This document shows positions 8,244 to 28,600 of a stretch of DNA of 36,339 bases, piece by piece (the stretch's first letter is position 1; each line of letters begins with the position of its first letter). The position numbers and the translations under genes are program-made. The notes below the pieces were generated by a model. The model saw only the letters and a program-made list of their open reading frames with translations, had not been told where the DNA came from and did no database searches. Source of the DNA: Psammoneis japonica (Eukaryota); NCBI GenBank assembly GCA_008632985.1, contig QPGO01000170.1, positions 124,001 through 160,339 on the forward strand. The letters are read 5' to 3'.

Positions 8244-8435
8244 TGGGTCATCCCAGCTGTCTCAAAGCACAGAAAACAATTTGGTTGCACACTGTCTTGT
8301 CAGTGTTTTTGTGTGATGTTTTCATGTTGACACCGCGGCCAACACAAAGGAACAGCCACCATCCACCATTCATTCCGCACCAAAAACAAACTCTTTTAGA
8401 ACAATGTGTGCAATGAACAACTGCAAATGATGCTT

Positions 8436-8735
8436 CGGTGTCACTTTTTAATTGACACACCCACATGTCAACAGATCAATTTGGTGCCATTTTTTGTTGA
8501 TGCACTTGTCTGCCAACAGACCAATTTGGCACAACTTTTTCATTGTTGCACACATGTGTTGACATGTGTGTTTGGCATCACTTTTTTGTTGACACACCTG
8601 TCTGTCAACAGAGCAACTTGGTTTCACTTTTTTGTTTTGCACATGTGCGCCAACAGAAGAATTTGGTGTCACTTTTTTGTTGATGCACCTGTCTGTTGAC
8701 AGATCAATTTGGTGTCACTTTTTTGTTTGCACACT
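8436..8735. repeat. Degenerate tandem array, ~45-bp unit, ~6-7 copies
   Basis: Consensus approx. ttggtgtcacttttttgttgacacacctgtctgtcaacagatcaat, with an internal inverted pair TGTTGAC...GTCAACA. Confidence 0.85.
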
Positions 8736-9024
8736 GAACAAAAGCCAGTGCATTGTCGTGACATAAAGTGGATCTCCCGCAGCAAACCACATTCTCCCAA
8801 ATCTGGTCCAAGTCGCTGATCAACGCATTTTGAGCAGCAAACGGACAACGTTGGGGCAACTCTGTCTCTTGTCCTCCGCAGCCATGTCATTCCCTTTGTG
8901 AAACAATGACCTCAACATGATCCCACCCCAAAGAATGCCTCCCAATCCCTTGCCTGTTGTGCCACGTTGCTGAAATGGAGCTGACGAATCTCTTTTTTGT
9001 CCGGCGCATCGCACTTCTTTCCTG

Positions 9025-10544: not shown

Positions 10545-13157
10545 AACATGAAGAAGTGAAATGGCTCACACAACCAGGTGAAGCTGTGTTGGCGCATTTT
10601 CCAGATTTTGGAGGTCCAGTCAAATGCATCGGATTGGCCAGAAGAAGAAAGGACCCTTGCCATGTTCCAGTTTTCACCGGTGGCAACTGTGTGCATTGTC
10701 CAACATGCAGTCTCAAGAGACAGAGCATTTTCTGCAATGCCCATGTTGCAGGCCGGCTCCCATCCGGAATGCTGTGCAGTTTGATCTTGACTGCAAAGAT
10801 GCACCTGACTCTGCATGTGGAACAAAAAACAGCAAGAAAACCAAGGAAGAATCTCTCCTCCACCAAATCAAAAAGTGCAACGCCAATCTTGTCAGTTGTT
10901 GGAGGAAGAAGGGCCAACCACATGGGGCGGGTGGCAAGAACTGGGGTTTGTTGTCAATGCGTCCCAAAAGCCTTGGTGACAATTCCAACAACAAAAGAGA
11001 AGTCAAGCAAAAGTTCCACCTGAAACAACCTCGCCGGAAGTCCAACAAGCTGTCTGATGCGTTCGACAACAACATCCTTTTTGTTGAAAAACCAGGCAGG
11101 GAGGGAACGAGGTGTTCCCTCATCATCCACTTCAAGCTGCGTGCAATGCACATGGTGTGATGGGTCCAAATGCTTTAGAGCAAATGAGTCGGCACCTTCA
11201 ATGCAAGGCAGAGATTCTGCACTCGGGTGCCAACCACCCGCACCGGGCAAGTGATCCAACTCATCCATTTGTTTTGAACCCAGATGCAATGGAGGGAATC
11301 ACCAACAATGCTGTCTTCAGGTCACGCAAGTTTGACAAAAGAATTCTTGGACTCGGTTTGTCAACGCAGCTCAGAGCCATTGTTGAACAGGGGCTGAGCA
11401 GTGGGTCAGCACGAGAGTTTTTACTTGCTGCAAAGTTTGACCATTCATGTCGAGGCACTGTGCCAAAGATTTTGGCATGAATGGAGTGATTGCTCAAGGG
11501 TGGAGCCGCAATGGTGGATCAGGTGTTGCAAAGCCTGGAATGACAGAAAAGGAAAAAGACCTCTCTGCCAGGTGCAGACAGTGGATTTTGCAGCTGACCG
11601 TGATTTTGGTTCACGTCATGTGCCAAAAAGCTTTGCATGGAACACCAAGGTCTTCCCAAGGAGAAATGTTGGAGTGAAGATGAAGGTTGTCTGAGAAATG
11701 CCAAGCCTGGTTGGGTTGCCCAGAACAATTGCGAGGTGTGTTAAAGCTCAATGAGGCAGGATCTCACATTGCCGGTTTTCCTCTAAAACACTTTGACTCA
11801 GAAAATGAGCGGGAATTCCTCTTGGATGACATTGGCAACGGTGTTGTGTTCATTGATGATTGGCGGGGTTGCAACACTGGCAAAGATTTGGTGGATGAGC
11901 TGAGAAGGCATTCGGCACCCATCACGAACACAATGTTTGACCATCTGTTGCAAAACAGAGAGATCGTCGGAGTTCAGTTACAAAAGCTGCTGTTCAAGAC
12001 GGATTGTGAACATGCAAATGCCCCATTGGAACAACTGGAATCCCTGACAGATGGCTTCAACCTTTCCACAATGGAAAACACAGATGATGTTCAGTGCGCC
12101 ACCCAACACATTGGGGATCACCTTCAGTGATTTGACAGTGGCGACCATGAGGGCATGTTGGGATTGCTTGTTGATGAAGGCTCAGACAGAGACCTTCTCC
12201 TGGGATCACCCACAGCTGGTTCAATTTCACATTTCACTGTGAGGGGCATGTTGCTTTCCACCACAGAGACGAATTCGCGGCATTTGTGGGCATGGAATTC
12301 AATGGCGCACCTCTTGTTGCATTGAGGGAATCTGTGAAACCTGAAAACCAAGAATCTGTGAAGACTTTGTTGCAGAAAAATGAAGTGGGATTGTTGCGCC
12401 ACCAACTGGTGTTGATGATGAAGCAACTGAAGAACAACGGCAACATGAGCGGAACAACGTGTTCAATGTTGCAGAGATTTCAATGCATGGATCCTTTGTT
12501 GACCAACATTGAAGAGATGCAAATCTGCTGTGCATTCATTTCCAGTCAATTTGACACTCTGCAGGCAAAGGACACTGGCGGAAGTCACGAATCTGCCAGG
12601 GAACTTTTGTTTTGTCGAGAAGCCAGGAAGAACAAATCACCCAAGCAGTGGTTGCCAAGCAAGAGGTTGGGCGATGTGCGCGTGGCTTTGACGATCCAAT
12701 CGGCTTCCGCGATGGGACAAATCCCCCCTCAAAATGCGCAGTGGCATGCACATCCAAGGGCAACTCTGGATTTTGTCTCTTTGTCAGCATGTGTGTTGTC
12801 AGGAAGGAAGCACATGCGAGAGGTGAATGGATCTCCTTGTTGAAGGCAAGGGAAGTTGTTCAAAATGCAATTGAAGTTGCAAGAAAAAATGGCAGAAGAC
12901 CAACTTGGGCCAAATGTGACCAACTGGGCTGCAGGGAATGTCGATCAATGAACAACAAGTTGTGTGAGGATCCATGCCACCTCACATCTGGCGAGTGGGG
13001 TGTGTTGCCCGTTCCCTCTTTGGAACATTCGAACAAGTCGACAAGCGGTTTGTGGCCTGATGAATCAGAGCACAGGATTGAATGTTTTGTTGGTGACCAA
13101 TGGTGTGATTTTGTCAACTCATGTCAGTGTTTGCTCTTGAGTCAAGTCAAAGCATGA
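10545..13157 (+). pseudogene. Large decayed coding region, function unknown
   Basis: Consecutive protein-like plus-strand fragments (11687-12130, 12286-12843, 12612-13157) broken by TGA stops and frameshifts. No family recognised. Confidence 0.4.
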
Positions 13158-13400
13158 ATGGATGAAGCAGAAGGGTTTGTTCCAATTCCGAGAATCGAAA
13201 CTGAGCGGGACCAACCAGCACTTTTAGACAAATTAGCAAGATCTCACTGTTCGCTGCACTTGCTGATGGAAGGACCAACAAGGAGTGGAACCAACAGATG
13301 CTTTTAGATGGGTTGACACGCCTTCACAGCAAACTCATTAGAACACTGACAGAGTGCTTAAAAAAATTTACGAGCGTTTCCTTTTTCCCAAGGTGCGTTG

Positions 13401-14560
13401 TCATTTCTCTTCATCTCGCTTCCTGCGTTTGTCTGAGTGAAGCTGGAGCACTTTGTTGGACAGGAAATAATTTGGCCAGTCATTGTGTCTGTCTGCAACA
13501 AACAACAATGAGTTCGAGCATCCCGCTGCTTCAACATTGTCTCCATTGCAGTTGTTGGGAACCAGGACAGAGAAACCACCCGCTGTAATTGCGTCTCTGC
13601 CAGCATGCCAAAATTTTGGGACATGCAATGTCTTTGTCTGTTCCTTGCATGACTGTCCTGCGGCAAGTGGCGTTGTTCCGTCATCAGCCAGTGCAAAACC
13701 ATGGAGCACAAAAGGGTGCCTTTTTTTCTGACCGGTTCCCTCTTTGCACAAGACCCTGGGTGTGTCACACCACAACCCATTGTTGTTGCAATTGGGGTGT
13801 CCATGAATTAAAATCCCTTTCTCTGGCATGGCAAACTCCGAGCAAACAACAATTTCATCATGCTTGGTGGACAGTTCCTCCGTTGGCAACAACAAAAAAT
13901 GAAGCAGGGTGGAGTCCACTTCTGCAGTTTCCGGGACAACCCGGATCTTGTTGCTGCCTGAACACTGACAGCAAGTTTGGGCAGTTCTGTTCACAACAAA
14001 CAAGGGGTGCATCAATTTTCTTCAGAGGAAGATGCGCTTGCCTGGCCAACCATGGGATGGATGAGAGGGCTGCATGCCTTCTCGAGAACTGCCATGTCAT
14101 GCAAACGAACAACAAGTTGGTCCAAGAAATTGTCTGCACCCAAAGCAACCTGGCAAGTTTTTGCCGGAAGCTTGGCCCAGAACTTCAGGTGACTCTCTCC
14201 AGTCATGGCAGAGAAATTTGCAATCTGGCCACAAAGGAAAGAGTCGACAATGAGATGCAGCATAGAATGGAACTTGGTGGTCCGGAACAAACTGGTGTTC
14301 CTTGTGCGATGAAGGCAAACTTTTGTCTTGAACATGAGCAGGATGACGCGGCACTTGAAATCCACCTTTCCTGTTTTTTCATGGAGTCCCTTGCTGCAGA
14401 GACAAAACAAATGGAAAAGCAGCACATGATGCAACAAGTCCAACAATTCATCAACTCCACAATCGACGGATTTTCATGAAAGAGTCAGGAAGTTTGTTTT
14501 CCATTTCTGCACAAATGACAGTGCTTGGCAATTTTGACTTGGTGAGAAGAAAGTGCCATC
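13401..14560 (-). pseudogene. Plavaka-like transposase, C-terminal portion (left of the copia insertion)
   Basis: TKFHSMLHL...GQIANFSAMTGESHLKFWAKLPAKTCQ (14012-14446) and IHGHPNCNNNGLWCD (cf. HPNY...WYD) in ORF 13401-14015. Confidence 0.7.
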
Positions 14561-14565
14561 TGTCT
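14561..14565 (+). repeat. 5-bp target site duplication TGTCT (left copy; right copy 21609-21613)
   Basis: ccatc-TGTCT-tgacagg at the left end; ctgtca-TGTCT-gctc at the right end. Confidence 0.95.
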
Positions 14566-14841
14566 TGACAGGATTTGAACAGGATTTGGATGCGCGCGAA
14601 GCATCGCGCGCTGTTTAGTTTGCCGTGCACAGTTTTGTGTGCTTTAGTTCCGCGCGTTCACGCGCGATGTAGTTTGCTTTCGAGCCACAAGGCTCACAAG
14701 AACAATGACAGCAGCCCGATTATACCGACTTGCACGTCTTTCGGCTCCTGCAACGGTCTCTGAGCGGAGACTCATCTGCCATTTAGACAGCAGCAAGGAG
14801 TCATTGTTTGAATTCTTGCCATTTGCCTTCAATTTCTGTCA
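14566..14841 (+). repeat. 5' LTR (276 bp)
   Basis: Ungapped alignment to 21333-21608 with 12 mismatches; TG...CA ends with a 6-bp inverted terminus. Confidence 0.97.
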
Positions 14842-14858
14842 GATTGACAGTCTTGCTC
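14842..14858 (+). promoter_or_regulatory. Putative primer-binding site, half-tRNA type
   Basis: gattgacagtcttgctc directly follows the LTR. Its reverse complement GAGCAAGA-CTGTCAA-TC resembles an anticodon arm, and there is no TGG complement to a CCA end. Confidence 0.45.
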
Positions 14859-15715
14859 ATTGTCAACCCATTGAGCAACCGCCATCATCGTCGTTGATTT
14901 TCCAACGACGCTGTTTTTAATTCTGCGTGGACCTCCGTACATGTTCTACATGCATCGGCAAGTCTGCGCGCATTCAATGCCAGGGCATCGGCAGGAAGTT
15001 AACGTCACCGTCAAGTCTCCTCACCGCTGGACATCTGGATTGATCATGCTACCTTTGATCGCTGAAGACATACATTCAACGGTCACATCCAAGTCCATCC
15101 TTGATCCTCATCCCTTGATGTACCTGTTCACATCTTCACGGCCAAGAACCTGCACCCACTCTTCGGACTGCGGTTTTGCTGCCACTCTGCAAGCACACCG
15201 AGTCCATTGCACCTGATCTACCCCGGACCACTGGTGCTCTGCAGTTCCACTGGGTCCACGAGGACGACTGTGAGAGCAAGCAGCCGTGATTGCAGCCTGC
15301 GTTGGGGCGAGGGTGCTTTCCCGCGTTTGTTCGTTCGTCCACAGCGCCTGACGCCTACGTCAACTGGCCAGCCTGATCGGGAAATCCAACCGATGTAAAA
15401 TGAGAACGGTTCGGGGGTCTTGTCCACCTCTGGTCAGCTTACCTGCAGGGGTTTACAACCCGCTGCTCCGCTCGTAAGCAACCCAAAGCGCCACCAGCTG
15501 CGGGTTCGGACGTGCCGGCACAACTCTACGGACCGGATAGGAAGTTTAGCACTCAACAACGAACGGGATGACAAAGCCCGGCGACTTCTGATTTTTAAGA
15601 TAGTTCAAGATTTCAAGTCAAGTCTGTTTCAAGTCAAGTCCACTCTCACCCAAGTTTCGAGTCTACCTTCGCTTCCCAACCAGAATTGATTGTCCTGACA
15701 CCATTTTTGTCTACC

Positions 15716-18700
15716 ATGGTTCTCACTCGTCAGCAACAAACCGATGGTTTCGAGCACGTGGTTGGAACCGTGCTTGCCCAAGGTGCTGGGAGTCCTCTTC
15801 GTTTGGCTTTGGCCCAAGACGGCACGGACTCACATCAGGAACTATTCACGTTCATGCCGTCCCAAATCGACTCGCTTGAGTGCGACAACGGCACTAATGC
15901 AATCCCTTTGCCCCGTGGTTGTGAGAACATGTTAGCAGCACTGGTCAGTCTGTACATTGTTAAAGCACACAAAGGTCTTGACGTTGCCAACGACTCCTCT
16001 TTGTTCACGCATGACGAGTTCCTTGCCTGCCGCCTCAGCCCCGACTGCATGTCTTCTGTGTCCATCGGCAGCTCACCCCTTGCACCTCCACATGTCACCA
16101 ACCCGACCAAGGCACGCGACCCGGTGCGAGACTTCAAGCGAGGCATCAAGCGTGATCCCACCGCTTTCACGGCTCTCAAATCCGACAAGCAGTGGCACAC
16201 TTGGCACACCTCACTTGTGGCACAAGCCCGTGCCCAAGACGTCGAGTGCACTCTAGACTCGTCGTACAAACCGACCAGCCCCGAAGACAAACTGCTCTTT
16301 GCTGAACAGCAAAAGCACATGTTCGCCGTCTTCGAACGCATCCTTCTCACCGACAAGGGCAAGGCTCTCATTCGCGAAAATGTGGGGTCCTCTGACGCAC
16401 AGACCGTCCACCGCTCCTTGTCTGCACACGCGCTTGCCTCCACCCGTGCATCTGTCGAGTCCTCCACCCTGCTCACGCACCTCACCACCGCACGTCTTGG
16501 TGATGGCACTTGGAAAGGTCCGACCCACGGGTTCATCCTTCATTGGCAAGATCAGTTGCGCAAGTACGAGGCACTCATCCCCGCCAGCGACCACTTCTCT
16601 GAAGGACAGAAGCGCGTCATGCTCGAGAATGCCGTGCATCCTGTCGAGGAACTCCGTGCTGTCAAGAACCAAGCTGATCAGCATCGTACGCAGAGTGGCA
16701 AGAGCCTCACATGCGATCAATGCTGTGGCTTGCTCCTCTCCGCGGCAGCTCAGTGCGACAGCACGTTTCAACCCAAGACGACACCTCGAGCTCCCCGACG
16801 CGCCATGTGCGCACACGACGTCTGCTCCGAGGAACCGTCCGACGATGTGTTCTACGACATTGACAGCGACGTTGACGTCCTTCAAGCCAATGCTGCCTGC
16901 ACTCGTGGTCCCAGCCTCACCGGTGTCCAATGGAGACGTCTCCCTCCCGACCACCAACGGCTCTGGGATTCGTTGCCCGATTCCACCAAGGCGATCATCC
17001 TCGAGCACTCTCGTCCGCCTCCCCGCAACCCGCGAGCCAGTGACCACCATGAGTCTGTTATGGCCAACCTTCACGACCAACACCTTGGGAGTGACGGTGA
17101 TGTCAACTTGTCCAACACGACTCCTGCTGACTGTGGTGACCCCGCCACACATGTGGATGCCACTTCGGATGATCCCATCCTGGCGCACCTCACCAAGCGC
17201 AAGCCACTGCCACCCGGTGATCTGCAACGTCTGTTGTCTCCTAACCAAGCCCCCAATGCCAGTCGACCGGGGCCATCCGCCGCTTCCTCCACCCCGCCAG
17301 CTTCTGCAGATGACATGGAACTTAACGGCCGCACTTGCCGCCGCGTCAACAACCACAATGTCATTTGCTCTGCCTCTGCTCATCGCTCCACACGCACTGG
17401 CGCTCTAGTCGATCGTGGGGCCAACGGCGGCATTGCTGGCGACGACGTTCGCATCATTGCACGCACCTCTCGCCAAGTCGACGTTCAGGGCATCGACGAT
17501 CATCAATTGGTGGACATCCCCATTGTCACCGCTGGTGCCGTCATTGAGACCCAGCGTGGTCCCGTCATCGCCATCCTCCATCAGTGCGCATGCACGGGAA
17601 AGGGCAAGACCATCCACTCCTGCGGCCAGCTCGAATGGTGCAAACAGGATGTCAACGATCGCTCTGTCAAGGTGCCCAACGGCTTGCAACGCATTGCCAC
17701 TCCTGATGGCTGTGTCATCCCCATTGACATCAAGGCTGGCCTGCCTCATGTTGCCATGCGACCTTGCACTGACGCCGAATGGGACACCCTGCCCCATGTC
17801 ATCCTTGCCGGTGATGACACATGGGACCCTTCCGTCCTCGATCACTCTGTCACTGACGACGACCAGTGGTGCGACGCGATCTCTGATCCACAGGACGATC
17901 CCACTGCCAACCTGTTTGACGAATGCGGCAACTGCCGTCACCGTGTCATTGTCAACGAGACCATCTTGTCCGCTTCCTTGTCTGCCGATCACGCGTCCGC
18001 CCTCGATGATCACCTCATTCCGAACGACGACGTGTTCTACGAGTGTCATCTGCATGCGATTGACCCCACGGGCGATGACGTTCCACCTCCGGAGCGCACT
18101 GTAAAGCCCAAGGACCCCCCCTTCGAGTCTCTTCGGCCTTGCTTTGGCTTCCCACCTGCCGATGCGGTCCGTCGTACTTTTGACTGCACCACGCAGCACG
18201 CCCGCATGCCCGCCGGTACACACCTTCGCAAGGCCTGCAAATCACCCAACCCCGCCCTTAATGTGCACCGCCGCAACGAGCCCATCGCCACTGACACCGT
18301 TCATGCCGACACCCCGGCCGTCGACTCTGGTTGCACCAGCGCCCAACTGTTTGTTGGCACCGAGTCTACCGTCACTGACGTCTGCGGCACTGAGACGGAC
18401 AAAGAGTTTGTCAACACACTCGAGGATCAGATCCGTGAACGTGGTGCACCATCCAAACTCATTAGCGACCGTGCTCAAGTTGAGATCAGCAACAAAGTGC
18501 TCGGGATCCTACGCGCCCTCTTCATCTCCAGCTGGCAAAGTGAGCCTCACCAGCAACACCAAAACTTTGCCGAGCATCGATGCCAGACTGTGAAGCGCAT
18601 GGCGAACACTGTCATGGACCGTTTTGGTTCGCCCGCCCACACATGGCTGCTGGCGCTCATGTGCGTGTGCTTCATGCTCAACCATGCAGCATCCCCACGT

Positions 18701-21385
18701 CTCCACTGGCGCACGCCCCTCGAGACTCTCACTGGATCCACCCCGGACATCAGCCCATTGCTTCGCTTTCACTGGTGGGAACCAGTGTGCTTCCACCTCG
18801 ATGACTCCGATTGGCCGTCCGAATCTCGTGAGTTGCGTGGACGCTTCGTTGGCATTGCTGAGCACGTCGGCCACCAGATGACCTTCAAGATTCTATCTGA
18901 CGAGACTCAGAAGATCCTCTGCCGGTCCAACGTTCGCTCCGCCACCCCCGATCCTGCCGTTCGAAACCTGCGTCTTGATCCTCCTGATGGGGAGCCACCT
19001 GAACCCATCATCAAATCTCGCCATGACGACAACCCCGTCGATTCTCCTGATGGGGAGATCAGGACACCCAAGATGCCAGTTTTCGATCCGCAAGACATCA
19101 TTGGACGTACCTTCCTCATGCAGCCACAAGAGGATGGACAACGCCACAGAGCTCGCATCGTCAAGGCCGTCGAAGACCACGAATGGAAAGTGAACGGCAA
19201 TCCCGAGCTCACTAAGTTCGTCTGCTCTGTCAACAATGACGAATACGAGGAAGTCCTTGCCTGCAATGACATCATGAATCACATTGAGCAAGAAGACGAA
19301 GACACCACCATTTGGAAATTTCGACGCATCGTGTCACACGAAGGCCCTCTGAAGCCTCACGACCCAACCTGGAAAGGCTCAAGCTACAACATCATGCTTG
19401 AATGGGAAAGTGGGGAGATCACGTCCGAGCCTCTTGCCATCATCGCCAAGGACGACCCCGTCACCTGTGCCATCTATGCACGAGAGAACGGACTCCTCGA
19501 CACGGATGGATGGAAGCGGTTCCGCACCATCGCGAGGCGCCAAAAGAAGCTATTTCGCATGGCCAACCAAGCCAAGCTTCGCTCCTTCCGCACTGCACCT
19601 CGCCACAAGTGCGGATGCGAAGTTCCCCGGAACTACAAACACGCCATGTCACTAGACGAACACAACGGCAACCGCAAGTGGGGAGACGCAACTAATCTCG
19701 AGATGGACCAACTCGACGAATACGAAGTCTTCCATGACTGCGGGCCCTTCAAGTCTTCCACTCCTCCTGCGGGACACAAGAAGATCCGAGTCCACCTGGT
19801 GCACGACGTGAAACACGACGGTCGCCACAAGGCACGACTCGTAGCCGACGGGCACCTCACGGACGTACCTGTCGACAGTGTCCACTCCGGAGCAGTCTCC
19901 CTTCGTGGCCTTCGGCTGATGATTTTCCTGGCCGAACTCAACGAGCTGGAGACATGGGCCACCGACACTGGCAATGCCCACCTTGAAGCCACCACCAAGG
20001 AGAAGCTTTACATTGTAGCTGGACCCGAATTTGGCAAACTCGAAGGACACATCCTTGTCATCCACAAGGCACTGTATGGACTCCGCAGCTCCGGTCTCCG
20101 CTGGCACGAGCGCTTCGCCGACTGCCTGCGAGCTGAAGGCTTCTTCCCCTGCCGCGCCGAACCCGACATTTGGATGCGCAGGAACGGCGACCACTGTGAA
20201 TGCATTGCCGTTTATGTGGATGACCTCGCCATTGCCATGAAGGACCCTCAATCTTTCGTCGACACTCTCACGGAAAAGTGCAAGTTCAAGCTCAAGGGTG
20301 CGGGACCCATTGAGTTCCATCTGGGTTGCGACTTTTCCCGGGACCCCGACGGAACCTTGTGCCTGTCTCCGCGCAAGCACATCGAGCGCATGGTCGACAG
20401 CTGCGCCCGACTGTTTGGGGAGAAACCTGCCACCAATGCCCTGTCACCTCTAGAGAAGGGTGACCACCCCGAACTGGACACTTCCGAACTGCTGGGACCC
20501 GATGGCATTCACAAGTTCCAGTCTCTTGTTGGTTCACTCCAATGGGCAGTGTCCCTTGGTCGAATTGACATTGCCACGGCCGTCATGTCACTCTCTAGCT
20601 TCCGAGCTGCACCCCGTCAAGGCCACTTGGATCGTGCCAAACGCGTCTGTGGGTGCCTCTCCAAGATGCGACACGGTGCTCTCCGCGTTCGCACGGAAGA
20701 GCCCGACCATTCGGATCTCCCTGCTCCGGCCTACGAATGGATGCATTCCGTGCATGGTGAAGCAGAAGAGATGATCCCGAAGGACGCTCCACCGCCCCTT
20801 GGCAAGTTCGTCACTGCCACCCACTGCGTCGATGCAAACTTGCACCATTGCATGCTCACCGGACGCTCTGTCATGGGAATGCTCCACTTCCTCAACAAAT
20901 TCCCGGCTGATTGGTTCTCCAAGAAACAAGCCACCGTGGAGACTGCAACCTGCGGATCTGAATTTGTTGCCGCAAGGAATTGTGTTGAGCAGATTGTCGA
21001 CCTGCGCATCACCCTGCGCCACCTTGGCGTCCCGATCCGTAATGTCAGTCACATGTTCGGTGACAACAAGTCGGTTGTAGACAGTGCCACCATCCCGCAC
21101 TCCAAGTTACACAAGCGACACACCGCACTGTCGTTCCACCGTGTGCGTGAGGCAATTGCCTCTGGTTGCCTTGAGTTCCACTTCATCGAAGGCTCCCGCA
21201 ACCCTGCTGACATTCTCAGCAAGCATTGGGGTTGCTCCCAAATCTGGGACCTTCTCCGCCCCCTCATGTTCTGGAACTTCATTCCATCCGAAGTCGAATC
21301 TGTTTCTGTGGCTCCTCAAGCAAACTGGGGAGTGACAGGATTTGAACAGGATTTGGATGCGCGCGAAGCATCGCGCGCTGTTTAG
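15716..21385 (+). CDS. Copia Gag-Pol polyprotein (open frame, missense-riddled)
   Basis: ATG at 15716 (MVLTRQ). Protease LVDRGANGG (~17405); integrase ATDTV / ISDRAQVE / QNFAE (~18285-18575); RT KARLVADGH, KALYGL, YVDD (~19830-20225); RNase H VDAN, GSEF, FGDN, NPADILSK (~20830-21225). Confidence 0.95.
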   Translation: MVLTRQQQTDGFEHVVGTVLAQGAGSPLRLALAQDGTDSHQELFTFMPSQIDSLECDNGTNAIPLPRGCENMLAALVSLYIVKAHKGLDVANDSSLFTHDEFLACRLSPDCMSSVSIGSSPLAPPHVTNPTKARDPVRDFKRGIKRDPTAFTALKSDKQWHTWHTSLVAQARAQDVECTLDSSYKPTSPEDKLLFAEQQKHMFAVFERILLTDKGKALIRENVGSSDAQTVHRSLSAHALASTRASVESSTLLTHLTTARLGDGTWKGPTHGFILHWQDQLRKYEALIPASDHFSEGQKRVMLENAVHPVEELRAVKNQADQHRTQSGKSLTCDQCCGLLLSAAAQCDSTFQPKTTPRAPRRAMCAHDVCSEEPSDDVFYDIDSDVDVLQANAACTRGPSLTGVQWRRLPPDHQRLWDSLPDSTKAIILEHSRPPPRNPRASDHHESVMANLHDQHLGSDGDVNLSNTTPADCGDPATHVDATSDDPILAHLTKRKPLPPGDLQRLLSPNQAPNASRPGPSAASSTPPASADDMELNGRTCRRVNNHNVICSASAHRSTRTGALVDRGANGGIAGDDVRIIARTSRQVDVQGIDDHQLVDIPIVTAGAVIETQRGPVIAILHQCACTGKGKTIHSCGQLEWCKQDVNDRSVKVPNGLQRIATPDGCVIPIDIKAGLPHVAMRPCTDAEWDTLPHVILAGDDTWDPSVLDHSVTDDDQWCDAISDPQDDPTANLFDECGNCRHRVIVNETILSASLSADHASALDDHLIPNDDVFYECHLHAIDPTGDDVPPPERTVKPKDPPFESLRPCFGFPPADAVRRTFDCTTQHARMPAGTHLRKACKSPNPALNVHRRNEPIATDTVHADTPAVDSGCTSAQLFVGTESTVTDVCGTETDKEFVNTLEDQIRERGAPSKLISDRAQVEISNKVLGILRALFISSWQSEPHQQHQNFAEHRCQTVKRMANTVMDRFGSPAHTWLLALMCVCFMLNHAASPRLHWRTPLETLTGSTPDISPLLRFHWWEPVCFHLDDSDWPSESRELRGRFVGIAEHVGHQMTFKILSDETQKILCRSNVRSATPDPAVRNLRLDPPDGEPPEPIIKSRHDDNPVDSPDGEIRTPKMPVFDPQDIIGRTFLMQPQEDGQRHRARIVKAVEDHEWKVNGNPELTKFVCSVNNDEYEEVLACNDIMNHIEQEDEDTTIWKFRRIVSHEGPLKPHDPTWKGSSYNIMLEWESGEITSEPLAIIAKDDPVTCAIYARENGLLDTDGWKRFRTIARRQKKLFRMANQAKLRSFRTAPRHKCGCEVPRNYKHAMSLDEHNGNRKWGDATNLEMDQLDEYEVFHDCGPFKSSTPPAGHKKIRVHLVHDVKHDGRHKARLVADGHLTDVPVDSVHSGAVSLRGLRLMIFLAELNELETWATDTGNAHLEATTKEKLYIVAGPEFGKLEGHILVIHKALYGLRSSGLRWHERFADCLRAEGFFPCRAEPDIWMRRNGDHCECIAVYVDDLAIAMKDPQSFVDTLTEKCKFKLKGAGPIEFHLGCDFSRDPDGTLCLSPRKHIERMVDSCARLFGEKPATNALSPLEKGDHPELDTSELLGPDGIHKFQSLVGSLQWAVSLGRIDIATAVMSLSSFRAAPRQGHLDRAKRVCGCLSKMRHGALRVRTEEPDHSDLPAPAYEWMHSVHGEAEEMIPKDAPPPLGKFVTATHCVDANLHHCMLTGRSVMGMLHFLNKFPADWFSKKQATVETATCGSEFVAARNCVEQIVDLRITLRHLGVPIRNVSHMFGDNKSVVDSATIPHSKLHKRHTALSFHRVREAIASGCLEFHFIEGSRNPADILSKHWGCSQIWDLLRPLMFWNFIPSEVESVSVAPQANWGVTGFEQDLDAREASRAV
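21322..21332 (+). promoter_or_regulatory. Polypurine tract
   Basis: aaactGGGGAG directly abuts the TG of the 3' LTR. Confidence 0.7.
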
Positions 21386-21608
21386 TTCACCGCGCACAGT
21401 TTTGTGTGCTTTAGTTCCGCGCGTTCACGCGCGATGTAGTTTGCTTTCGAGCCACAAGGCTCACAAGAATAACAACAGTAGCCCGATCATGCCGACTTAC
21501 ACGTCTTTCGGCTCCTGCAACGGTCTCTGAGCGGAGACTCATCTGCTGTTTAGACAGCAGCAAGGAGTCATTGTTTGAATTCTTGCCATTTGCCTTCAAT
21601 TTCTGTCA
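21333..21608 (+). repeat. 3' LTR (276 bp)
   Basis: Matches 14566-14841 at offset 6767. Confidence 0.97.
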
Positions 21609-21613
21609 TGTCT

Positions 21614-24601
21614 GCTCACCTTGCAAAGTTGTCCCGATCATCCGCCAAACCAACGACAAGACCATGTGGTCCGGGCATCAACAATTGATCAGGTGAAGTC
21701 TCAACAGCCCGTTGGTTCCGTCTCAATGATTTGGTTTCATCCCATGCAATCTTCTGGCACAACAAAAAGTGACCATCATCCAGTTGATTGGAAAATGGTT
21801 CCCAAAATTCAGAAAGGCCGTGACGATGCATCTGTTGCATCACACAGCAGGCGACATCCAACCATGTGCCTCTGGGAAGTGCAACAGGCACATTCTCATC
21901 AACCGGGCTTGTGTTTGTTTCACCAGTTTGTTCATTTGATGGTTCAACGGGATCAGGGTCCTCATCGTTGGGTCCACTTTCTGACAATTTGGTCAGTTGT
22001 TCTTCTTGTTGCTTCTTTCCTTTAAAGCCATCAGCCGTCTTTTTCTTTTTGCTGTCAAAGGATGGATCGCACCTTTTTTCCAGCAGTTTTCTGCCAGCGT
22101 GTGTGTGGCCAATGATGGCAAGTGCAAGAAGCTTGCCCACCTTCTCGTCACACACAAGTTGACTGAGTGTGGAAAGTCCCCCATCAACTCAAATTCGCGG
22201 ACAGTCACGTCTCTGACCAGGACGACAATGGGATGTGCAGAACAATTCAGATGCAATCTGGCCGCACTCCTCTTTCTGTTTGGCAGACATGTCTCCTGTT
22301 GTTGCCTCCATCATTTGAGGGACAATGCCCACCTCCAACACATGCATTGTGTCAGCAATGGTCATGCCAAATGCACCGCGTGGGCTGTCACCCATGCCAA
22401 GTGGAAAGTGAGCATTGTCCACCATGTGCTGTCCAAACACTTTCCTCAACATTTTGGAGCACACAGTCATTCGGCGAATGAGGGAGGAAGCCAGCTCAGT
22501 CTCGGCCTTTTTTTTTTGATGTCATTGCACGATGCTTCCGGGCAACGCTTTTGACATGCTGGTGCCAACAGCTGTTGTCATCCTCTGGATCTGGGCCCAA
22601 TGCAGCAACAGCGAGCAACTCTGTGAAAGCCTGGTCAAAGAATTGGCAGACATGGAGGGGATCATCAGAAAGGTGGGAGGGCACATGGCAGTTGTGAGAC
22701 AACCTCTTGGTCTTGCTTTGGCCCCATGTCTCTTCCACAAATGTGTTCTTGATTGAGGACATCCCCCAACAGGGAGTTGCAATGCATTGTGGCTCTGACA
22801 CAGCAGCATTGAGTGCCTGTCATTGCACGAACAATGGGTGGATTTGCCTGGCAATGAAGCAGACCACGGAGAACCTCCTTGAGAATGTGGTGGCAGTTGG
22901 CAACAACAAGGCACCCAAGCTTGTCTTTCTTGCATTTCTTGTCCAAATTGGGTGTGAATCCAAGTGGATGCCAACAACGACAGTCGCGGCGTGTGTCCTC
23001 TCGAATCATGGCAAGTGAGTGCATTGCAGGCTCCATCCCATGAGGATTGACCGCATCAACTCCAGTCTTGTCCGGGCATTTGACAAGGTGAATGTGAAAG
23101 TCAGAGGCTGTTTCCTTGGCATTGGAGCAATGTTGTTGCCACTCGCCATCACCCATGTCTTGACTTTGAGTGGACAATTGCCAGTCACCAGGACAATCCA
23201 GGAACTGCATCTCAACACTGTCAGCCTGGCCAGCACTGGAACCCAAATCACCGTCAGCAGTGGGTGGCACACAAGGTGACCAGATGTCATTTGGATTGAC
23301 CTGCAACTTGGAAAGATCACGGAACACTGGCTTGGCAAAGAGATCCTGCAAGGTCTTGGTGAAACTGCAAACTGGGAAAGGTGGGGAGTGACAACATTTT
23401 GGTCCATCCTTCTGTTGCTGCATTGGATTGTTGCATTCAAGCATCACAACAGCAGTGCGGGGGAGAGGAACATTGGGAAATGGCCCCAGGAGTTGCTTCA
23501 TTGCCACGGTGGTTGTGATGGGGGCTTTGACACATCCAGTCTTTTTTCTGCATGCTCTTCATGCTAAATTCTCATCACTTTGTCAATGAAGTCAATTGCG
23601 ACACCTGACCGATGACATGAATGATGCAAATGCACTGTGGGTGCAATGCTGGGTGAGTTGACTGGAGGTGCATCAAAGTCCTCATTGGGTGCAACATCAT
23701 GCACTGGGCCAAGAGGATTGTGTTGATTGAAGGAAGAAACAGGCTCTTCCATTGGACGGGAAATTGAGGGGGGCCCAGAACTGCCATTGAGATGGTCAGC
23801 TCCAATGAACTCGGGGACATCCACAGGACTGTCCTCTCCAAGGGCAGACACGCCATTGTCTGCAAACAAAACAAATTGGCGGGCATTTTGGGAGGCTGCA
23901 CTGGCAGCAGCAATGTTGGCGGCTAAACGCAATTGACCAGACCGTCTGATGGAGGGTGGGCGCAGTCCATTTCCGGCAGAGGGAGGGCAAGCTGGAGAAG
24001 AATTGTCCGATGGTGTGGGAGGAGATGGAGCTGGATTCCAAAGGACTTTGGGGAGGGGAGGAGGGGGTTTGTCATCGGCAAAACCAAACCCAGCAGGATC
24101 GTCATGGTCGTCCAGTGATTCATCATCTGCAGGGGGGAGTGCATTTGTGGCATTGGAAGATGCGGCATGCCGGCAAAGGGACATTTCCTCCTTTTTGCGG
24201 CAGGGCAAGTGCTTCTGTAGATGAAGGGCGATGTTGGAAAAGGGGACACGGCAATGGGGGCATTTGGGTTTGTTGGTGTTGGACCCAAGGGAGCCAACGG
24301 AGGCGGAATCCAGAGGATGAGAGGAAAGAGATGTTCTGCCGCATGGGGAAGACAATTGGGTTGCATGGCGCAACTGTGTCAATGGGGGATGAAGGCCAAA
24401 TGCAGCAGCACAGTGCCGAGATGGGTGACACTGCACATTGTTTTTGGAGTCAAATCCACATTGTCTGCAACGAGGACAACTGAAAGACTTGGTGGAAACG
24501 GCAGAACGGAGGCAGTTAGTTCTGATGTGCCTGCTGAGACCACGTTCGGAAAAGAAGCCAGTTTGTTTGCACCATGGACAAACAAGACCATCAGACAACA
24601 T
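21614..24601 (-). pseudogene. Plavaka-like transposase, N-terminal and core portion with C2H2-type zinc fingers
   Basis: ATG at 24601 (MLSDGLVCPWC...LSRH; CPRC; CPHC...LQKH). Core motifs PDKTGVDAVNPHGMEPAMHSL...WHPLGFTPNL, NCHHILKEVL, LLGD...ICG, VDNAHFPLGMGDSPRGAFGMTIADTMHVLEVGI. Several stops and frameshifts. Confidence 0.75.
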
Positions 24602-25189
24602 GGTCGATGTGCAGAGAAAAAGGAGTTGAGAAGAGAGTCGAAAGGAAACAGCATGTGCAGCAACAATCACTTGGGGATTTGGTGAGGGCAGAAACATGCA
24701 AAGAGAAACAATGTGCAATCAAGGGGGGAAGGCGTTGTGGACAGACGGGATGGAAGGATGGAAGGGGCAGGGAGAGAAAATTTAGAAGACAAGCAGAACC
24801 CACCTTTGCGAACACATGCGGCGATTTTGATCCAGAAAGTTGATTGACACACAATCCAGAAATTAACACAGAATTGAATGAACACACAAGGCTTGTCAGA
24901 TGGGGGGGTGAACAGTTGAATTGAGGAACACAGATGTTTGTTGTTGAACATTTCACAAATGCTGACTTGACAAATCAGCACGATCTTGGATTGAAGGGAG
25001 AGAATGTTGGGTTTTGTTTAAAGAAATCTTGACAGCCAGTGCAACACCTGGATCATTGGTGTCCCAGATGTCACAGAGAGTTCTGCCTGGAGCTGGGGCA
25101 TGCCAACCCATTTGCCACTGCTCAATGCTGGCGCGTGCAAGGCAAAACCACCTCTTCTTGATGTGCACACCCAGCCAGTGGCTGGAGCC

Positions 25190-25625
25190 AATGGCAAGAG
25201 AAGACACACTTCCCTTGCTCCCTCAGCTTTGAGAGAGCACAGTTTCAATTGATCTGGTTTGTTCTCATGGGATCACAACAGCCTGCAGAAGCAGCGCTTG
25301 ATGGTGCTGATGCCATGTTGTGCCATTGTTTTCTCAAACAAGGCCCTGCAAGCAGAGGCAATCTTGCTGATTCATTCACAGCCTGATGTTTCAGTGCAGA
25401 GCTTGCAAGCAGAATTCTGGTGTGGGTGCAACATCACACACAGCCAGTCCTGCCTGAAGCTGGAGCATGTCAACCTCTTTTTGGCAGCTGCTCAATGCCA
25501 ACATCATGTGCAAGGCTCACACAGCCTCTTTGTGCATTCAGCGGGGTGAGCCAGTGACAAGAATGCACACACTTCTGTTGCTCCTTCAGCTTTGAAAGGG
25601 CACAATTTCCATTCATCTGGTGTGT
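25190..25625 (-). repeat. Internal repeat pair (~60 bp core, ~363 bp apart) in decayed coding-like DNA
   Basis: KLCSLKAEGAREVC (~25205-25248) vs KLCPFKAEGATEVC (~25567-25610), with matching DNA. Confidence 0.6.
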
Positions 25626-28600
25626 CCTCAGGGGGCAGTTGGCAAAAGCACTTTGGGGAGAATGCAATGAGTTTGCCAGCAGGCAAGACAGATGCCCGCA
25701 TGAGAGCAGGAGGTGGGTGCAGTCTTTGGTCATGAGAGAGACAGCCCAACAGATGCAAGACTTTGTGGTCAATCAGAACACTGAAAATGCAATTTGGCAA
25801 CAAACAGTTGAAAACACCACACATGAATGTTTGCACCACCCCAATTGAACAGGTGGCAGATCAAAATTTTTGCTGCCAGAAGTTTGTCAATTTTTCAAAA
25901 TGTGACAGAAATGCACAAAAATGTGACACAACATGAGAAGTGACAATGACAACCATGCAGGGATGAAAACAGCATCTGTGCTAATTTCAGGCATGCAGCA
26001 GCAACAATGTGAGCATGACAAGTTTGGCTGATGCAATGTTTTGTTCACTGGTGTCTTGACAACAATGACCCAAACAGGTGCACATCTTGTCGATTGCAGC
26101 TCAACACATCTGGCACATTTTGTCACATGGAAATCAATGAACAGTGTCACACCACATTTGTCTGCCCATCACCCATTTTGTTGCCTGGAATCCATGAGAA
26201 AGAGTTCCCACACTTTAAGATGAGTTGTGCAAGCTTGAGATCTAGGGCAGATCTAAGTTGTGCCACACAGTGCCCTGTTTTTTTTAGAGAGCACCTCAAG
26301 ATGTTCAAACAGAGTGCAAGAGTGCGGTGAGTGGCCCTTGGAAAGCAAAAAAACAGACCAAAATGAAAGCAGGGTGCCAAATTCACAAAAAACACAGATC
26401 TGTTTGCTCCATGATTTGGTGCCTGATGCATGGGCTCTCTTCCCCGCTGTGTTGCAAAAAAACCTGAGATCAGCCTTGCAACACCTGCCAGCATTGTCAA
26501 TTGTCTGCCTTTGATGTTTTTTTGTGCAGCACCATTCTTGAACATCTCAAGAGTTGTGTGGGGCAGGTGGATTTTCAAGAACTTCAAAAGCATCAGACCT
26601 GTTCCAGCTCCAGGTGTCCTGCACAGTGTGTGCAACCCATCACTGGCCCATTTTTGCATTTGGCACAATGAACTCGTCCTTCAAAATTGATTTCCTCCCT
26701 GAATTGAAGGGAGAGTGCATGCAAAACTTTTTTCTTTGTGTGCAGTCATCTTTCAATTTTTGAAATGATCAAGTTTGAAGGAGCTCAATGTGCCAAGCTG
26801 CACAGAAAATTTGCCTCTCACATGATGGAGGATTGCAGATCATTTGGGGCTCCTGGAACAGGCCATCAAGAGCTGTGGTCACACCACCAACTCTGTTGCC
26901 TGCTCAGATGTTCAGTGTCACACACAGCCCCACCTGGGGCCAGAATGCATCAAGAAAATGATTGGCAAGCACAAGCTGGGAAGTGTTGCCCAAATGTTTT
27001 GCTGCTTGTTGCTGGCTCTGCAGCAGCATTGGCCAGAGACAAAAGCCTGGTGGCACTTGACAGCATTGCTTGTGAAAGGTTGAGAGTTGCCAGCCAGACA
27101 CACACTTCAAGCTCTTCAGACAATGTCTGCTCTGTGGCAGCTGGAAGCAAACAATCCAAAACAGCAGTGACACAGAGATGTTGGAGCAGTTGGCCAACAG
27201 CTGGCACAGAAGCTTTTGCCAGGGTGATGCGCGAGAATTGCCACAATGTGGCCACAACTGCTGCCGCACTCAAGCTCACAAAGAAGAAGAAGACAACAAT
27301 GAGGAAGAGCAGAAAAGGATCCAATGAATGCACTGAAGCATGCACTCAAGGGGAAAGACACCAAAAGGCATCAAGGAGAGAGCAAAAGTGATGCCAAGTG
27401 CTTCATTGAGTGAGCATGGTGAAGTCAATGCACAGCACCTGTGAATCAAGAAGTCAGTCAGATGACACACACAAAAGAAACGCAAGATGAAGGGGTGGGA
27501 TCACCCAAAAATGTCTCACATGCTGGACCCTGAGATTGAGAGGCCACATTGACATGTGGGCATGGCATGTGAACATGACACAGTGTTGACAAGTCAGGCA
27601 CACATGAATGAGTGGTTTGCACATCTGGCTCAACAGATCCAAGCTGCTGTGTGCTGCTGCTCTCCCGAGTGCAGAGATCCCTTCAGAGCACAAGAGTGAG
27701 CACAGCCCCCAGAAAGCAAGTGGAGTGCAAGAAGCCATGAGAAAGCAGGTTGCCCAAGCAATTTGGCAGCTGGCTGGAAAGCTGCTGGCAGCAATGCATG
27801 TGACTCAAGCTCACACTCACTTGAAAAAAACAGCAGGAGCAACTGGAACCAGTGAGTTGTGAAGCTCTTTTGAATCCTGACATGATCTCACACCAGTGCA
27901 GTTGGGAGGTCTGCTGTCTGTTCAATGCCCAATTTGCACCACAACACTTGGTCTCTCTCCCTTCATTGCCAACCCACAGCAGGGAAAATGATCCTCAACA
28001 ATTGCACTTGCACTCAGCATGAAAAAATCTGCCCATCAACATTGTTGCGCAACTTGACAGAGTTTTGTTGCAGGCCCACTGACAGTGAAAGAAGAGTGCT
28101 GCTGCCTCAAGAATGGATTTGAGCTCAAGAATGATGTGGCTGTGGGGTGCAATGGCAGTCTTTGAAGCATCGGCTCATTTTGCCATGCATGACAGCCTGA
28201 CACCACACGCAGCCAGAGAACATGAATGAAGTGTGCCAGTCCAAAAAGGGCACCCACATCATGCAAAATGCAAATGACATCACATGTGTGCACACCTGAG
28301 AGAAGCCGCACCATGTCCACACAGGTTCAAGGTGCACACTTGTGTTGTCCACATCCTGAAGATTCGGCATTACAGGAGTTCCAGGTGGACACACACGTCA
28401 AGCTGGGCCGCGTCGACTCTTGCGAGGACTTGTTGATGCCCGTTCCTTGACCGCTTCTTTGAGATCACACACATTGTCAGGAATGGGATGAATCGATAAC
28501 CTGTTCACCGCGTAGAAATATTTGTTGGGGAGCCTGCACAGCAGTTATCGCAGGCCTGAGGGACCGCAACGGAGTCTTGAAACACCTGACACGTTAGACT

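Follow-up and report, generated by a model that had tools for sequence, protein, structure and literature searches.

TA-directed hypermutation probably acted on a copia-type retrotransposon after its integration into an older TA-depleted block

The 36,339-nt stretch of DNA analysed here (the window) contains, at positions 14566-21608, a full-length Ty1/copia-type LTR retrotransposon in which TA dinucleotides have been changed to TG or CA on both strands and in both LTRs, in a preferred sequence context and within sharp limits. Our overall explanation, to which we assign a probability of about 80%, is that this copia element underwent TA-directed hypermutation after integration and lies within an older, saturated block. 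A locus-targeted process would have turned 5'-TA-3' into TG or CA in the integrated retrotransposon, A>G after T on one strand being T>C before A on the other; both strands would have been hit, and about half to three quarters of the element's ancestral TAs would have been lost. In the older block into which it inserted (~1.7-28.4 kb), the TA process and ordinary CpG decay would both have come close to completion.

The element comprises a 5' LTR (14566..14841, + strand, 276 nt, TG..CA ends), an internal region (14842..21332, + strand; GC 0.57, TA o/e 0.22, CG o/e 0.92) and a 3' LTR (21333..21608, + strand, 276 nt), and a repeat search with MAFFT alignment found the two LTRs to be the single direct repeat pair in the window. 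Paired LTRs, TG..CA ends and a 5-bp target-site duplication are all present, as in other Ty1/copia-type elements. The duplicated bases, TGTCT, stand at 14561..14565 (+ strand) and are repeated after the 3' LTR at 21609..21613 (+ strand); as they occur on both sides of the element, both LTRs stem from a single insertion event. Contigs of the source sequencing run also include the empty-site joint, 14560>21609, at which 5 letters are shared. The best DNA run, X1, contains 63% of the sampled words of the window, and 14,846 of its contig pieces map to the window, indicating a highly repeated element family; summed depth of source-run contigs over the element is ~20-240 times flank depth. No further LTR copy was found within the window or in the metagenome collection searched, and among the variant rows listed from the source-run contigs none falls within either LTR. 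Marine, freshwater and sediment metagenomes contain relatives of this copia family in abundance.

Alignment of the LTRs with MAFFT gave 12 mismatches in 276 nt and no gaps (95.65% identity), all 12 being transitions at exactly the positions reported in the initial annotation: five TA versus CA/TG sites (14703, 14712, 14721, 14724 and 14732), three TG/CA double differences (14621-2, 14706-7 and 14780-1), and only one CG versus TG difference (14626). Every one of the 12 sits within aligned YpR/YpR dinucleotides. Assuming that two thirds of changes are transitions, the probability of 12 of 12 is 0.008; were 12 positions drawn at random from 276, three or more adjacent mismatch pairs would arise with a probability of 0.009; and, with 58 of 276 positions able to toggle by transition, the probability of at least five of the six single differences being TA<->CA/TG changes is 0.002. 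Seven of the 12 differences fall within 30 bp (14703-14732), a cluster that is simply a TA-rich segment, and within it the TA state alternates between the LTRs.

The initial annotation had further claimed that up to 11 of the 12 differences fit a TA ancestor and that both LTRs were hit by a process acting on chromosomal DNA. Site modelling agrees with the former, a TA ancestor fitting the TG/CA sites (G=1.3) with a hit probability p=0.54 per site per copy. As to the latter, the 5' LTR carries six inferred TA hits (3 to TG, 3 to CA) and the 3' LTR five (3 to CA, 2 to TG), and the presence of both directions in each LTR points to a target that was double-stranded and chromosomal. The ancestral state of TA is supported by four independent lines of evidence, namely the open reading frame, the mutation spectrum, site modelling and TA depletion, rather than by outgroup LTR copies. 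Uniquely explained, polarised changes number 53 (26 A>G, 10 T>C, 4 CpG transitions and 13 transversions); 24 of the 26 A>G changes come after T, and 9 of the 10 T>C changes come before A. Inside the element, 37 variant rows are listed, 18 with CA/TG in the window and TA in other copies and 4 with the reverse; at 4 listed sites the window has TA and the other copies, mostly or without exception, have TG. A majority consensus of genomic copies would be unreliable for polarising such sites because the hit probability per copy is 0.5-0.8, and a tree is required. The predicted overestimate of age by LTR dating holds: nominal divergence is 4.3% (12/276), against 0.36% (1/276) without the TA-derived sites, so that TA hypermutation inflates LTR divergence ~10-12-fold.

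The polyprotein of the element, P0001 (15686..21385, + strand, 1899 codons), lies in a single frame that stays open for 1,928 codons without a stop codon (15599-21385, stop to stop). Of the domains expected in the Ty1/copia-type order protease - integrase - RT - RNase H, Pfam reports for it only the copia-type reverse transcriptase RVT_2 (PF07727; aa 1361-1571, E=2e-25, 90.3 bits against a cut-off of 31.6), N-terminal of which lies what we take, from motifs judged by eye, to be an integrase-like region. Homologs, for which PF07727 is the only precomputed domain, number 1161 at E<=1e-3; all 120 that are listed have PF07727, and the best polyprotein match among these is 71% identical. P0001 retains 8 of 37 conserved Tyr columns, with 19 changed to Cys and 8 to His, while 32-37 of the 37 are kept in each of 39 homologs; conserved non-Tyr residues are kept in P0001 at 630 of 676 positions. 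Tyr content is 0.7%, against a median of 3.8%, and is the lowest of 121 proteins. Replacement of a conserved Tyr by Cys or His requires TAY to have become TGY (19 cases) or CAY (8 cases), that is, TA>TG/CA. Since no stop codon can arise by TA hypermutation, a long frame that stays open is not evidence of function, and with 27 conserved Tyr>Cys/His changes in its open frame the polyprotein is probably not functional.

The Tyr fates form 14 runs against 12.3 expected, with no strand runs. At these codons the sense strand shows 19 A>G against 8 T>C (p=0.052), an excess to which RNA-level or transcription-coupled editing may contribute somewhat. Seven of the eight retained Tyr residues cluster at aa 1234-1510, a segment in which TA retention is higher in codon phases 1 and 2 and not in phase 3. 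This codon-phase pattern hints that some TA loss preceded insertion and occurred under selection, in which case not all hits would be post-integration; loss of TA in still-transposing lineages under selection may represent an arms race and not only post-mortem decay.

The block around the element has limits at ~1.7 and 28.4 kb that are sharp within a few hundred bases, TA density returning at 28497. Measured in 1-kb windows (from 2001 on the left; six windows from 22001 on the right), the TA-free, CpG-poor left tract (1751..14565) has TA o/e of 0.00-0.15, CG o/e of 0.10-0.73 and CA/TG of 1.39-2.07, and the right part of the same tract (21609..28450) has TA o/e of 0.00-0.07 and CG o/e of 0.08-0.49. 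Over the tract, TA o/e is ~0.05, with 0-5 TA per kb in 16 of 18 1-kb windows and 9 and 10 in the two that adjoin the element; CA and TG are mostly at 1.5-2.1, and twelve consecutive windows (2001-14000) have TA at 0.00-0.13 and CA and TG each at 1.54-2.07. The left tract is symmetric (CA 1.67, TG 1.69). CpG is also depleted, with CG o/e of 0.08-0.49 in most 1-kb tract windows, reflecting real CpG decay, and the TC context carries no signal (TC o/e 0.98, CC 0.91). An old tandem duplication in the tract (9504..9978, + strand, 2 x 237 nt) has a nucleotide identity of 0.86, against 0.96 when bases are scored as purine or pyrimidine alone, and its two copies show 9 CA/TG double differences. The flanking tract is multi-copy in the source run; no copia similarity was found in it, none of its 145 ORFs of at least 75 aa matches Pfam, and its original nature is unrecognisable. 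The element, at TA o/e 0.22 and GC 0.57, falls outside the ranges of 0.44-1.02 and 0.39-0.55 found in 65 metagenomic relatives. Elsewhere in the window, a 585-aa ORF at 30697-32454 has one weak homolog among 5.8 billion proteins.

Surviving TAs are biased in sequence context. In the tract, 41 of 64 surviving TAs are YTAR, a context that accounts for 67 of 384 TAs in the window's normal ends (p=1e-13), and in the LTRs none of 6 YTAR site-copies was hit versus 11 of 18 others (p=0.016). The process thus favours TAs that read RTA on one or both strands, with a purine two bases upstream, and YTAR is refractory. Its estimated rate is ~30-fold that of CpG decay (0.54 versus 0.024 per site per copy, a single CpG hit lying behind the latter value).

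Processes limited to C>T offer one other account of these data, in which RIP-like CpA>TpA (TpG>TpA) change made the five TA sites and opposite-strand deamination of 5mC in CpG made the TG/CA sites. The surrounding CpG decay is real and accounts for LTR site 14626, and at a few internal sites (2 of 37 variant rows) the window reads CG and other copies TG. However, this account is hardly credible, since TA is strongly depleted rather than enriched, no stop codon interrupts 1,928 codons and the loss of conserved Tyr to Cys and His demands TA>TG/CA. A CG ancestor would need three opposite double hits when only one of the 24 CpG sites carries a single hit and 20 are undamaged in both LTRs, and it is rejected (G=16.0; P=1.35e-4 by simulation). 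Editing before integration, whether ADAR/ADAT-like A-to-I change on RNA or APOBEC-like deamination of single-stranded intermediates, would instead have made the LTRs different at insertion. From the scheme of reverse transcription we infer that editing of minus-strand or plus-strand strong-stop DNA could give LTR-specific changes, and the 19 to 8 excess of sense-strand A>G over T>C at Tyr codons points the same way. Yet RNA editing would leave identical LTRs and sense-strand A>G only, and a cDNA model expects TG only in the 5' LTR and CA only in the 3' LTR, unlike the mixture of both directions seen in each. The flanking tract, moreover, has no retroelement similarity and is nevertheless saturated symmetrically, and in Bigelowiella natans a comparable process was observed on integrated DNA during clonal growth, according to the main text of Mettrop et al. 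(bioRxiv 10.64898/2026.01.13.699255). We regard pre-integration editing as very unlikely to explain the LTR differences.

The process may also be real and the LTR pair not a clean record of it, if assembly or polishing mixed copies or if gene conversion occurred between differently mutated copies. The great abundance of the family, as judged by the depth and the number of mapped pieces above, makes this conceivable, as do the 63% of sampled words contained in run X1 and the concentration of 7 of the 12 differences inside 30 bp. Such mixing is nonetheless unlikely: the matching 5-bp duplication marks one insertion, the LTRs differ by neither indels nor transversions, whereas other copies in the same run show transversions at 116 places as well as indels, and the alternation of TA state within the 30-bp cluster is unlike a single conversion tract. 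A final alternative concerns chemistry only and replaces adenine deamination by modification of thymine at TpA, with TET/JBP-type oxidation to 5hmU or 5fU, mispairing with G and T>C change. One event, viewed from opposite strands, appears as T>C before A or as A>G after T, so that sequence by itself cannot decide, and in dinoflagellates, according to the available text of PMC11572971, 5hmU lies mostly in transposable elements, older work having found T replaced preferentially in TA and TC. We consider the thymine route somewhat unlikely, because the TC context is untouched in the tract and because the B. natans authors, in their main text and from homology only, prefer an ADAT2/ADAT3-type adenine deaminase. 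For the TA-directed, post-integration hypermutation that we favour, the chemistry that we infer to be most likely, at slightly better than even odds, is deamination of adenine by an enzyme (A>I, read as G) in silenced or foreign sequence on the chromosome, thymine oxidation being the chief alternative.

If this explanation is true, a process otherwise known from one 2026 preprint has here a far deeper natural record, consisting of a 20-kb saturated tract and a dated internal clock in the LTR pair. It would also yield new estimates, a hit probability of ~0.5-0.8 per site and a rate ~30-fold that of CpG, which are absent from the main text on B. natans, and the YTAR-refractory tetranucleotide rule would constrain any candidate enzyme. 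An "intact ORF" would lose value as a sign of an active element, and hypermutated repeats would be expected to yield many spurious long ORFs, like the 145 without a Pfam match in 19.6 kb. With 71% identity in the best polyprotein match and a single weak homolog for the 585-aa ORF, the proteome is absent from the protein database, which hints, short of proof, that the source is not the sequenced B. natans strain. Should it be another organism, the process would be phylogenetically wider than reported, and a conserved, deaminase-type system by which protists defend themselves against mobile DNA would gain in plausibility. Tentatively, and at somewhat less than even odds, TpA hypermutation might be a general genome defence, RIP-like but opposite in direction, that extends to another lineage of marine protists, unrelated to the first, with retrotransposons as a main target, an RTA/TAY core with YTAR protected, a rate ~30 times that of CpG decay, and erasure of TAA and TAG stops that leaves long open frames in dead repeats.

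Among known systems, RIP in ascomycete fungi changes C to T at CpA, raises TA, depletes CA/TG, lowers GC and makes premature stop codons. The process described here resembles it in consisting of dinucleotide-specific transitions at the DNA level that degrade repeated or mobile DNA in place, on both strands and in both copies, in regional islands. It differs in direction, with TA destroyed, GC raised and stop codons impossible, and we reject RIP given the TA o/e of 0.05-0.22, CA/TG of 1.3-2.1, the 1,928-codon open frame and the TA>TG/CA polarity. APOBEC3 (C>U on cDNA) and ADAR (A>I on dsRNA) act before integration and strand-specifically. They share with the present case a deaminase-type hypermutation of retroelements with a preference for the 5' neighbour, whereas here hits are independent on both strands and LTRs and extend to non-retroelement DNA. 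Editing of the APOBEC3/ADAR type is not what we find, since both directions occur in each LTR and strand runs are absent among the Tyr fates. According to a citation in the main text of 10.64898/2026.01.13.699255, ADARs prefer a U just 5' of the A that they edit. Dinoflagellate 5-hydroxymethyluracil is likewise a mark concentrated in transposable elements with a preference for T in TA, and a possible route to T>C, but TC is preferred there and untouched here; the available text of PMC11572971 reports no mutational consequence of the mark (the terms 'mispair' and 'T-to-C' are absent from it).

The closest likeness is to B. natans, for which the main text of Mettrop et al. (bioRxiv 10.64898/2026.01.13.699255) describes TpA>TpG/CpA hypermutation of integrated viral DNA. 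There, two integrated viral regions gained 231 single-nucleotide mutations, of which 230 were A>G or T>C, the GC-biased ones all at TpA; mutation-accumulation lines gave a direct measurement of a mutation rate elevated ~1000-fold; and RT and DDE families were enriched among TpA-depleted CDS. Shared features are two-direction, TpA-confined transitions, sharply local action on foreign or mobile DNA, and clusters of 1-kb windows that are depleted in TpA and enriched in CpA+TpG. The tract falls within the thresholds given in that main text (Rho TpA <=0.43, CpA+TpG >=1.52), with our o/e computed per dinucleotide and the combined Rho there possibly defined slightly differently. The target here is a high-copy copia element and an unrecognisable repeated tract, in contrast to a single-copy NCLDV/virophage insert there, and TA o/e is ~0.05 in our tract versus 0.45 in the NCLDV region. 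CpG decay proceeds alongside in the present case, and LTR, retrotransposon, copia and CpG are absent from that main text, which also gives no context past TpA such as the YTAR-refractory one seen here. By analogy, the process at work here would be the same as that in the B. natans mutation-accumulation lines. The case would then add a further instance, and a further class of target, to that recently described process rather than a process of a different kind.

The copia-type element at 14566–21608 and the DNA around it show a regionally confined conversion of TA to TG or CA that acted at the DNA level after integration. The only direct repeat pair in the window consists of two 276-nt LTRs on the forward strand, LTR5 at 14566–14841 and LTR3 at 21333–21608, each starting with TG, ending with CA and carrying TGTCT (5 bases) directly outside it; these identical flanks, together with the TG..CA repeats, identify them as the two LTRs of one insertion. 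The polyprotein frame P0001, on the same strand (15686–21385), is a single open frame of 1,899 codons (1,928 stop to stop) with a copia-type reverse transcriptase (Pfam RVT_2, E=2e-25). The LTRs, target site duplication and RVT_2 domain mark this as an ordinary retrotransposon of the copia type. We found no further copies of the LTR elsewhere in the window, and no exact matches to its first 27 nt in the metagenome contigs.

Over the 276-nt LTR alignment we observed 12 mismatches and no gaps; all 12 are transitions and all fall within aligned YpR dinucleotides. This alignment reproduced the differences reported in the initial annotation in number, type and position, with the same breakdown into five TA versus CA or TG differences (14703, 14712, 14721, 14724 and 14732 in LTR5), three adjacent TG/CA double differences (14621–14622, 14706–14707 and 14780–14781) and one CG versus TG difference (14626). 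The pattern is non-random by three chance tests: 12 of 12 transitions when two thirds of changes are taken as transitions (P=0.008), at least three adjacent mismatch pairs (P=0.009), and at least five of six single differences toggling between TA and CA/TG, of which 58 of the 276 LTR positions are capable (P=0.002).

Several lines of evidence support TA as the ancestral state inferred from these sequences, with TG and CA derived. The aligned YpR sites of the LTRs fall into the classes TA/TA (4), TA/CA (3), TA/TG (2), CA/TG (3), CG/CG (20) and CG/TG (1). If the CA/TG sites descend from TA, as proposed in the initial annotation, a model of independent hits fits (G=1.3) at a hit probability of p=0.54 per site per copy. 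If they descend from CG, it does not fit (G=16.0): with 7 hits spread over 24 CpG sites, at least three opposite double hits arose in only 1.35e-4 of simulations. For polarisation at the protein level, P0001 was aligned with 39 of at least 120 homologs, 59–71% identical over aa 850–1899, and columns with Tyr in at least 80% of the 39 were scored as conserved (n=37). At these columns P0001 has 8 Tyr, 19 Cys (TAY to TGY), 8 His (TAY to CAY) and 2 Phe, compared to 630 of 676 other conserved residues retained; each of the 39 homologs retains 32–37 of its 37–39 Tyr columns. Tyr makes up 0.7% of P0001, against a median of 3.8% and a second-lowest value of 2.9% among 121 proteins. At 75 conserved columns P0001 departs from the consensus, and after setting aside 18 multi-base and 4 ambiguous cases, the 53 usable changes comprise 26 A>G (24 after T), 10 T>C (9 before A), 4 CpG transitions and 13 transversions.

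We then compared the window with other genomic copies in the source run, the DNA run whose contigs supplied them, where the element is highly repeated (14,846 contig pieces placed). We used the 40 variant rows with the best support out of 687, a sample biased for that reason, and after dropping 3 flank rows we analysed 37 inside the element, none of them within the LTRs. Among these, the window has CA or TG where other copies have TA in 18 rows and the reverse in 4; 9 rows toggle between CG and TG/CA when read by single position, although four adjacent pairs among them are really CA/TG double differences, and the remainder are 4 other transitions and 2 transversions. At the four adjacent double-variable sites among these best-supported rows, depth shares permit residual TA and never an excess of CG, with the clearest residual TA at 15251–15252 (A share 0.60 versus C share 0.30); we give these shares little weight because contig-derived shares are rough. 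Counting against a TA ancestor, four sites in the same set of rows have TA in the window, yet 21–100% of the other-copy depth is TG. The best DNA run contains 63% of the sampled words of the stretch, no RNA run was among the matches listed, and the assembly of so abundant a family may have mixed copies. Taken together, the protein, spectrum, LTR-model and copy evidence exclude a RIP-like reading in which TA is the derived state.

Both LTRs were hit, as the initial annotation had claimed, with 3 TG and 3 CA in LTR5 and 3 CA and 2 TG in LTR3. The two-directional hits in each LTR support its further claim that the process acts on chromosomal DNA. Editing before integration does not fit: RNA editing would leave the LTRs identical, and editing of reverse-transcription intermediates predicts a single direction per LTR, unlike the presence of both TG and CA in each. 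In the left part of the tract, the TA-depleted, CpG-poor DNA flanking the element (1751–14565 and 21609–28450), the two strands are affected equally (CA 1.67, TG 1.69), and we detected no strand-coordinated runs of Cys or His fates in P0001 (14 runs versus 12.3 expected). The hit probability per site per LTR copy is 0.54 for TA versus 0.024 for CpG, so that TA conversion runs at about 30 times the rate of CpG decay in the same DNA, a ratio that depends on a single CpG hit.

Surviving TAs in the tract are strongly enriched in the context YTAR (41 of 64: CTAA/TTAG 23, TTAA 16, CTAG 2) compared to those of the normal window ends (67 of 384; odds ratio 8.4, p=1e-13), and ATAT, ATAC/GTAT and GTAC are completely absent among them. 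The LTRs independently show the same preference, with 0 of 6 hits at the TTAG sites 14616, 14645 and 14784 versus 11 of 18 at other TAs (p=0.016). YTAR survival in both tract and LTRs indicates that efficient conversion of a TA requires R-T-A on one strand or the other, which suggests R-T-A as the core motif. Because the conversion destroys TAA and TAG and cannot make a stop codon, the P0001 frame looks intact, the element has many long frames on either strand, and the tract holds 145 long ORFs.

The block that is poor in both TA and CG spans 26.7 kb (1751–28450) including the 7,043-bp copia element, and is sharply bounded: on the left side the final TA before it lies at 1658, and TA is dense again from 28497, with shifts in CG density near 1765 and 28365. 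Per 1-kb window, TA o/e is 0.00–0.13 at 2001–14000 and 0.00–0.07 at 22001–28000, corresponding to 0–5 TA per kb at 44–51% GC in all but one window; CA and TG o/e are mostly 1.5–2.1 and CG o/e is 0.08–0.49. The window ends are ordinary (TA o/e 0.39–0.74, CG mostly 0.7–1.4). Duplications within the tract are 0.78–0.86 identical in nucleotides and 0.95–0.97 in purine/pyrimidine space and hold 9, 5 and 3 CA/TG double differences, and copies of its tandem repeats at 8434–8734 (46/91/137-nt units) and 9504–9978 (2 × 237 nt) are distinguished almost exclusively by transitions, with many CA/TG doubles among them. The presence of these doubles in old duplications indicates that the double difference is the normal end state of the process.

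The tract may derive from old transposons, an integrated virus or some other source. None of the 145 ORFs of at least 75 aa in its 19.6 kb outside the element matches Pfam, tblastn with 5 copia homologs as queries gave matches confined to the element, and the tract edges carry no terminal direct or inverted repeats in nucleotide or purine/pyrimidine space. Searches for tRNA genes and Rfam families returned none. The element flanks (13800–14565 and 21609–22400) reach a summed depth of about 1,000–1,900 in the source run, compared to about 70 for one contig, and joins across the empty insertion site occur in several contigs, indicating that the tract itself belongs to a repeat family. These empty-site joints probably derive from paralogues of that flank and were not counted as insertion polymorphism.

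In the window ends, the right-hand normal-composition DNA contains two long intron-free ORFs. The first (28773–30233, reverse strand) includes a 63-nt tandem repeat and encodes a coiled-coil protein of 486 aa. The second (30697–32454, forward strand) encodes a 585-aa FG-GAP repeat protein, for which a search of 5.8 billion proteins yielded a single weak homolog (27% identity). Neither P0001 nor P0087 has an entry in the protein atlas. When 20 larger ORFs were compared with Pfam, the only matches were FG-GAP_2 and one sub-threshold TPR, both outside the tract. The left-end ORF P0123 looks non-conserved, and the assembly has one N at 34816, within an ORF of the right-hand normal region.

Inside the tract, the copia element is a younger, half-converted insert, with TA o/e 0.22, CG o/e 0.92 and GC 0.57. 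It lies outside the ranges of 65 metagenomic relatives for both TA (o/e 0.44–1.02) and GC (0.39–0.55). If the ancestral TA o/e was 0.44–1.02, the interior has taken about 74–315 hits (p=0.53–0.83), in agreement with the 27 of 35 Tyr codons and the LTR estimate. There were no hypermutated relatives among 39 aligned homologs, at least 120 retrieved proteins and the 65 metagenomic loci, the scan for the last being biased against hypermutated copies because Tyr occurs in one of its two search patterns. Seven of these loci (L018, L049, L006, L031, L035, L026 and L032) have CG o/e 0.14–0.26 with normal TA (0.49–0.72), and most of them have CA and TG at 1.4–1.8; these CpG-depleted relatives thus show CpG decay without the TA process.

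Seven of the 8 conserved Tyr retained in P0001 lie at aa 1234–1510 (19385–20215). Inside versus outside this interval, which was chosen post hoc, TA retention was 7/40 versus 7/224 in codon phase 1 (p=0.0017) and 5/27 versus 10/180 in phase 2 (p=0.03), whereas phase 3, which offers a synonymous route, showed no increase (1/69 versus 15/464). The a-priori Pfam RT interval gave no significant effect. The phase pattern resembles the outcome of purifying selection against some of the hits, in which case some TA loss may predate this insertion and have occurred in a still-active lineage.

The best-matching described process appears to be the TpA hypermutation of Bigelowiella natans, the only match for this signature in the literature collection searched, which also yielded papers on RIP and CpG; the diatom CoDi paper (PMC2806351) makes no mention of hypermut, RIP, TpA, deamination or dinucleotide. 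In the mutation-accumulation lines of the 2026 B. natans preprint, an integrated NCLDV region and a virophage region took 231 of the 302 single-nucleotide mutations of the nuclear genome, 230 of these 231 were A>G or T>C, the GC-biased changes were all on TpA, and the rate was about 1e-7 to 1e-6 per site per generation in some lines only (10.64898/2026.01.13.699255). From homology only, its authors suggest that an adenine deaminase of the ADAT2/ADAT3 type acts on DNA (10.64898/2026.01.13.699255). Following them, adenine deamination, with A converted to I and then read as G, would be the most likely chemistry here. The main rival chemistry is thymine oxidation at TpA: dinoflagellate transposable elements are marked by 5hmU, for which a preference for T in TA and TC has been reported (PMC11572971), but TC is untouched in the tract of the window (o/e 0.98).

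All testable features that define the B. natans signature are present in the element and tract, whereas those of RIP and of pre-integration APOBEC/ADAR editing are absent. The proteome of the source organism is missing from the collection of 5.8 billion proteins, which suggests, without proving it, that the organism is not the B. natans strain that was sequenced. For sequence context, the B. natans main text goes no further than TpA, although its Fig. 2B and Table S2 may do so, and LTR, retrotransposon, copia and CpG each occur 0 times in that main text. Relative to it, our data add an LTR retrotransposon as target, an LTR pair that serves as internal clock, saturation to a TA o/e of about 0.05, parallel CpG decay, the YTAR rule, and consequences for dating and ORF calling. 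The LTR observation of the initial annotation is thus confirmed and its interpretation supported, and the element extends to another case, and to a new class of target, a process whose first description is only months old; it does not represent a new kind of process.
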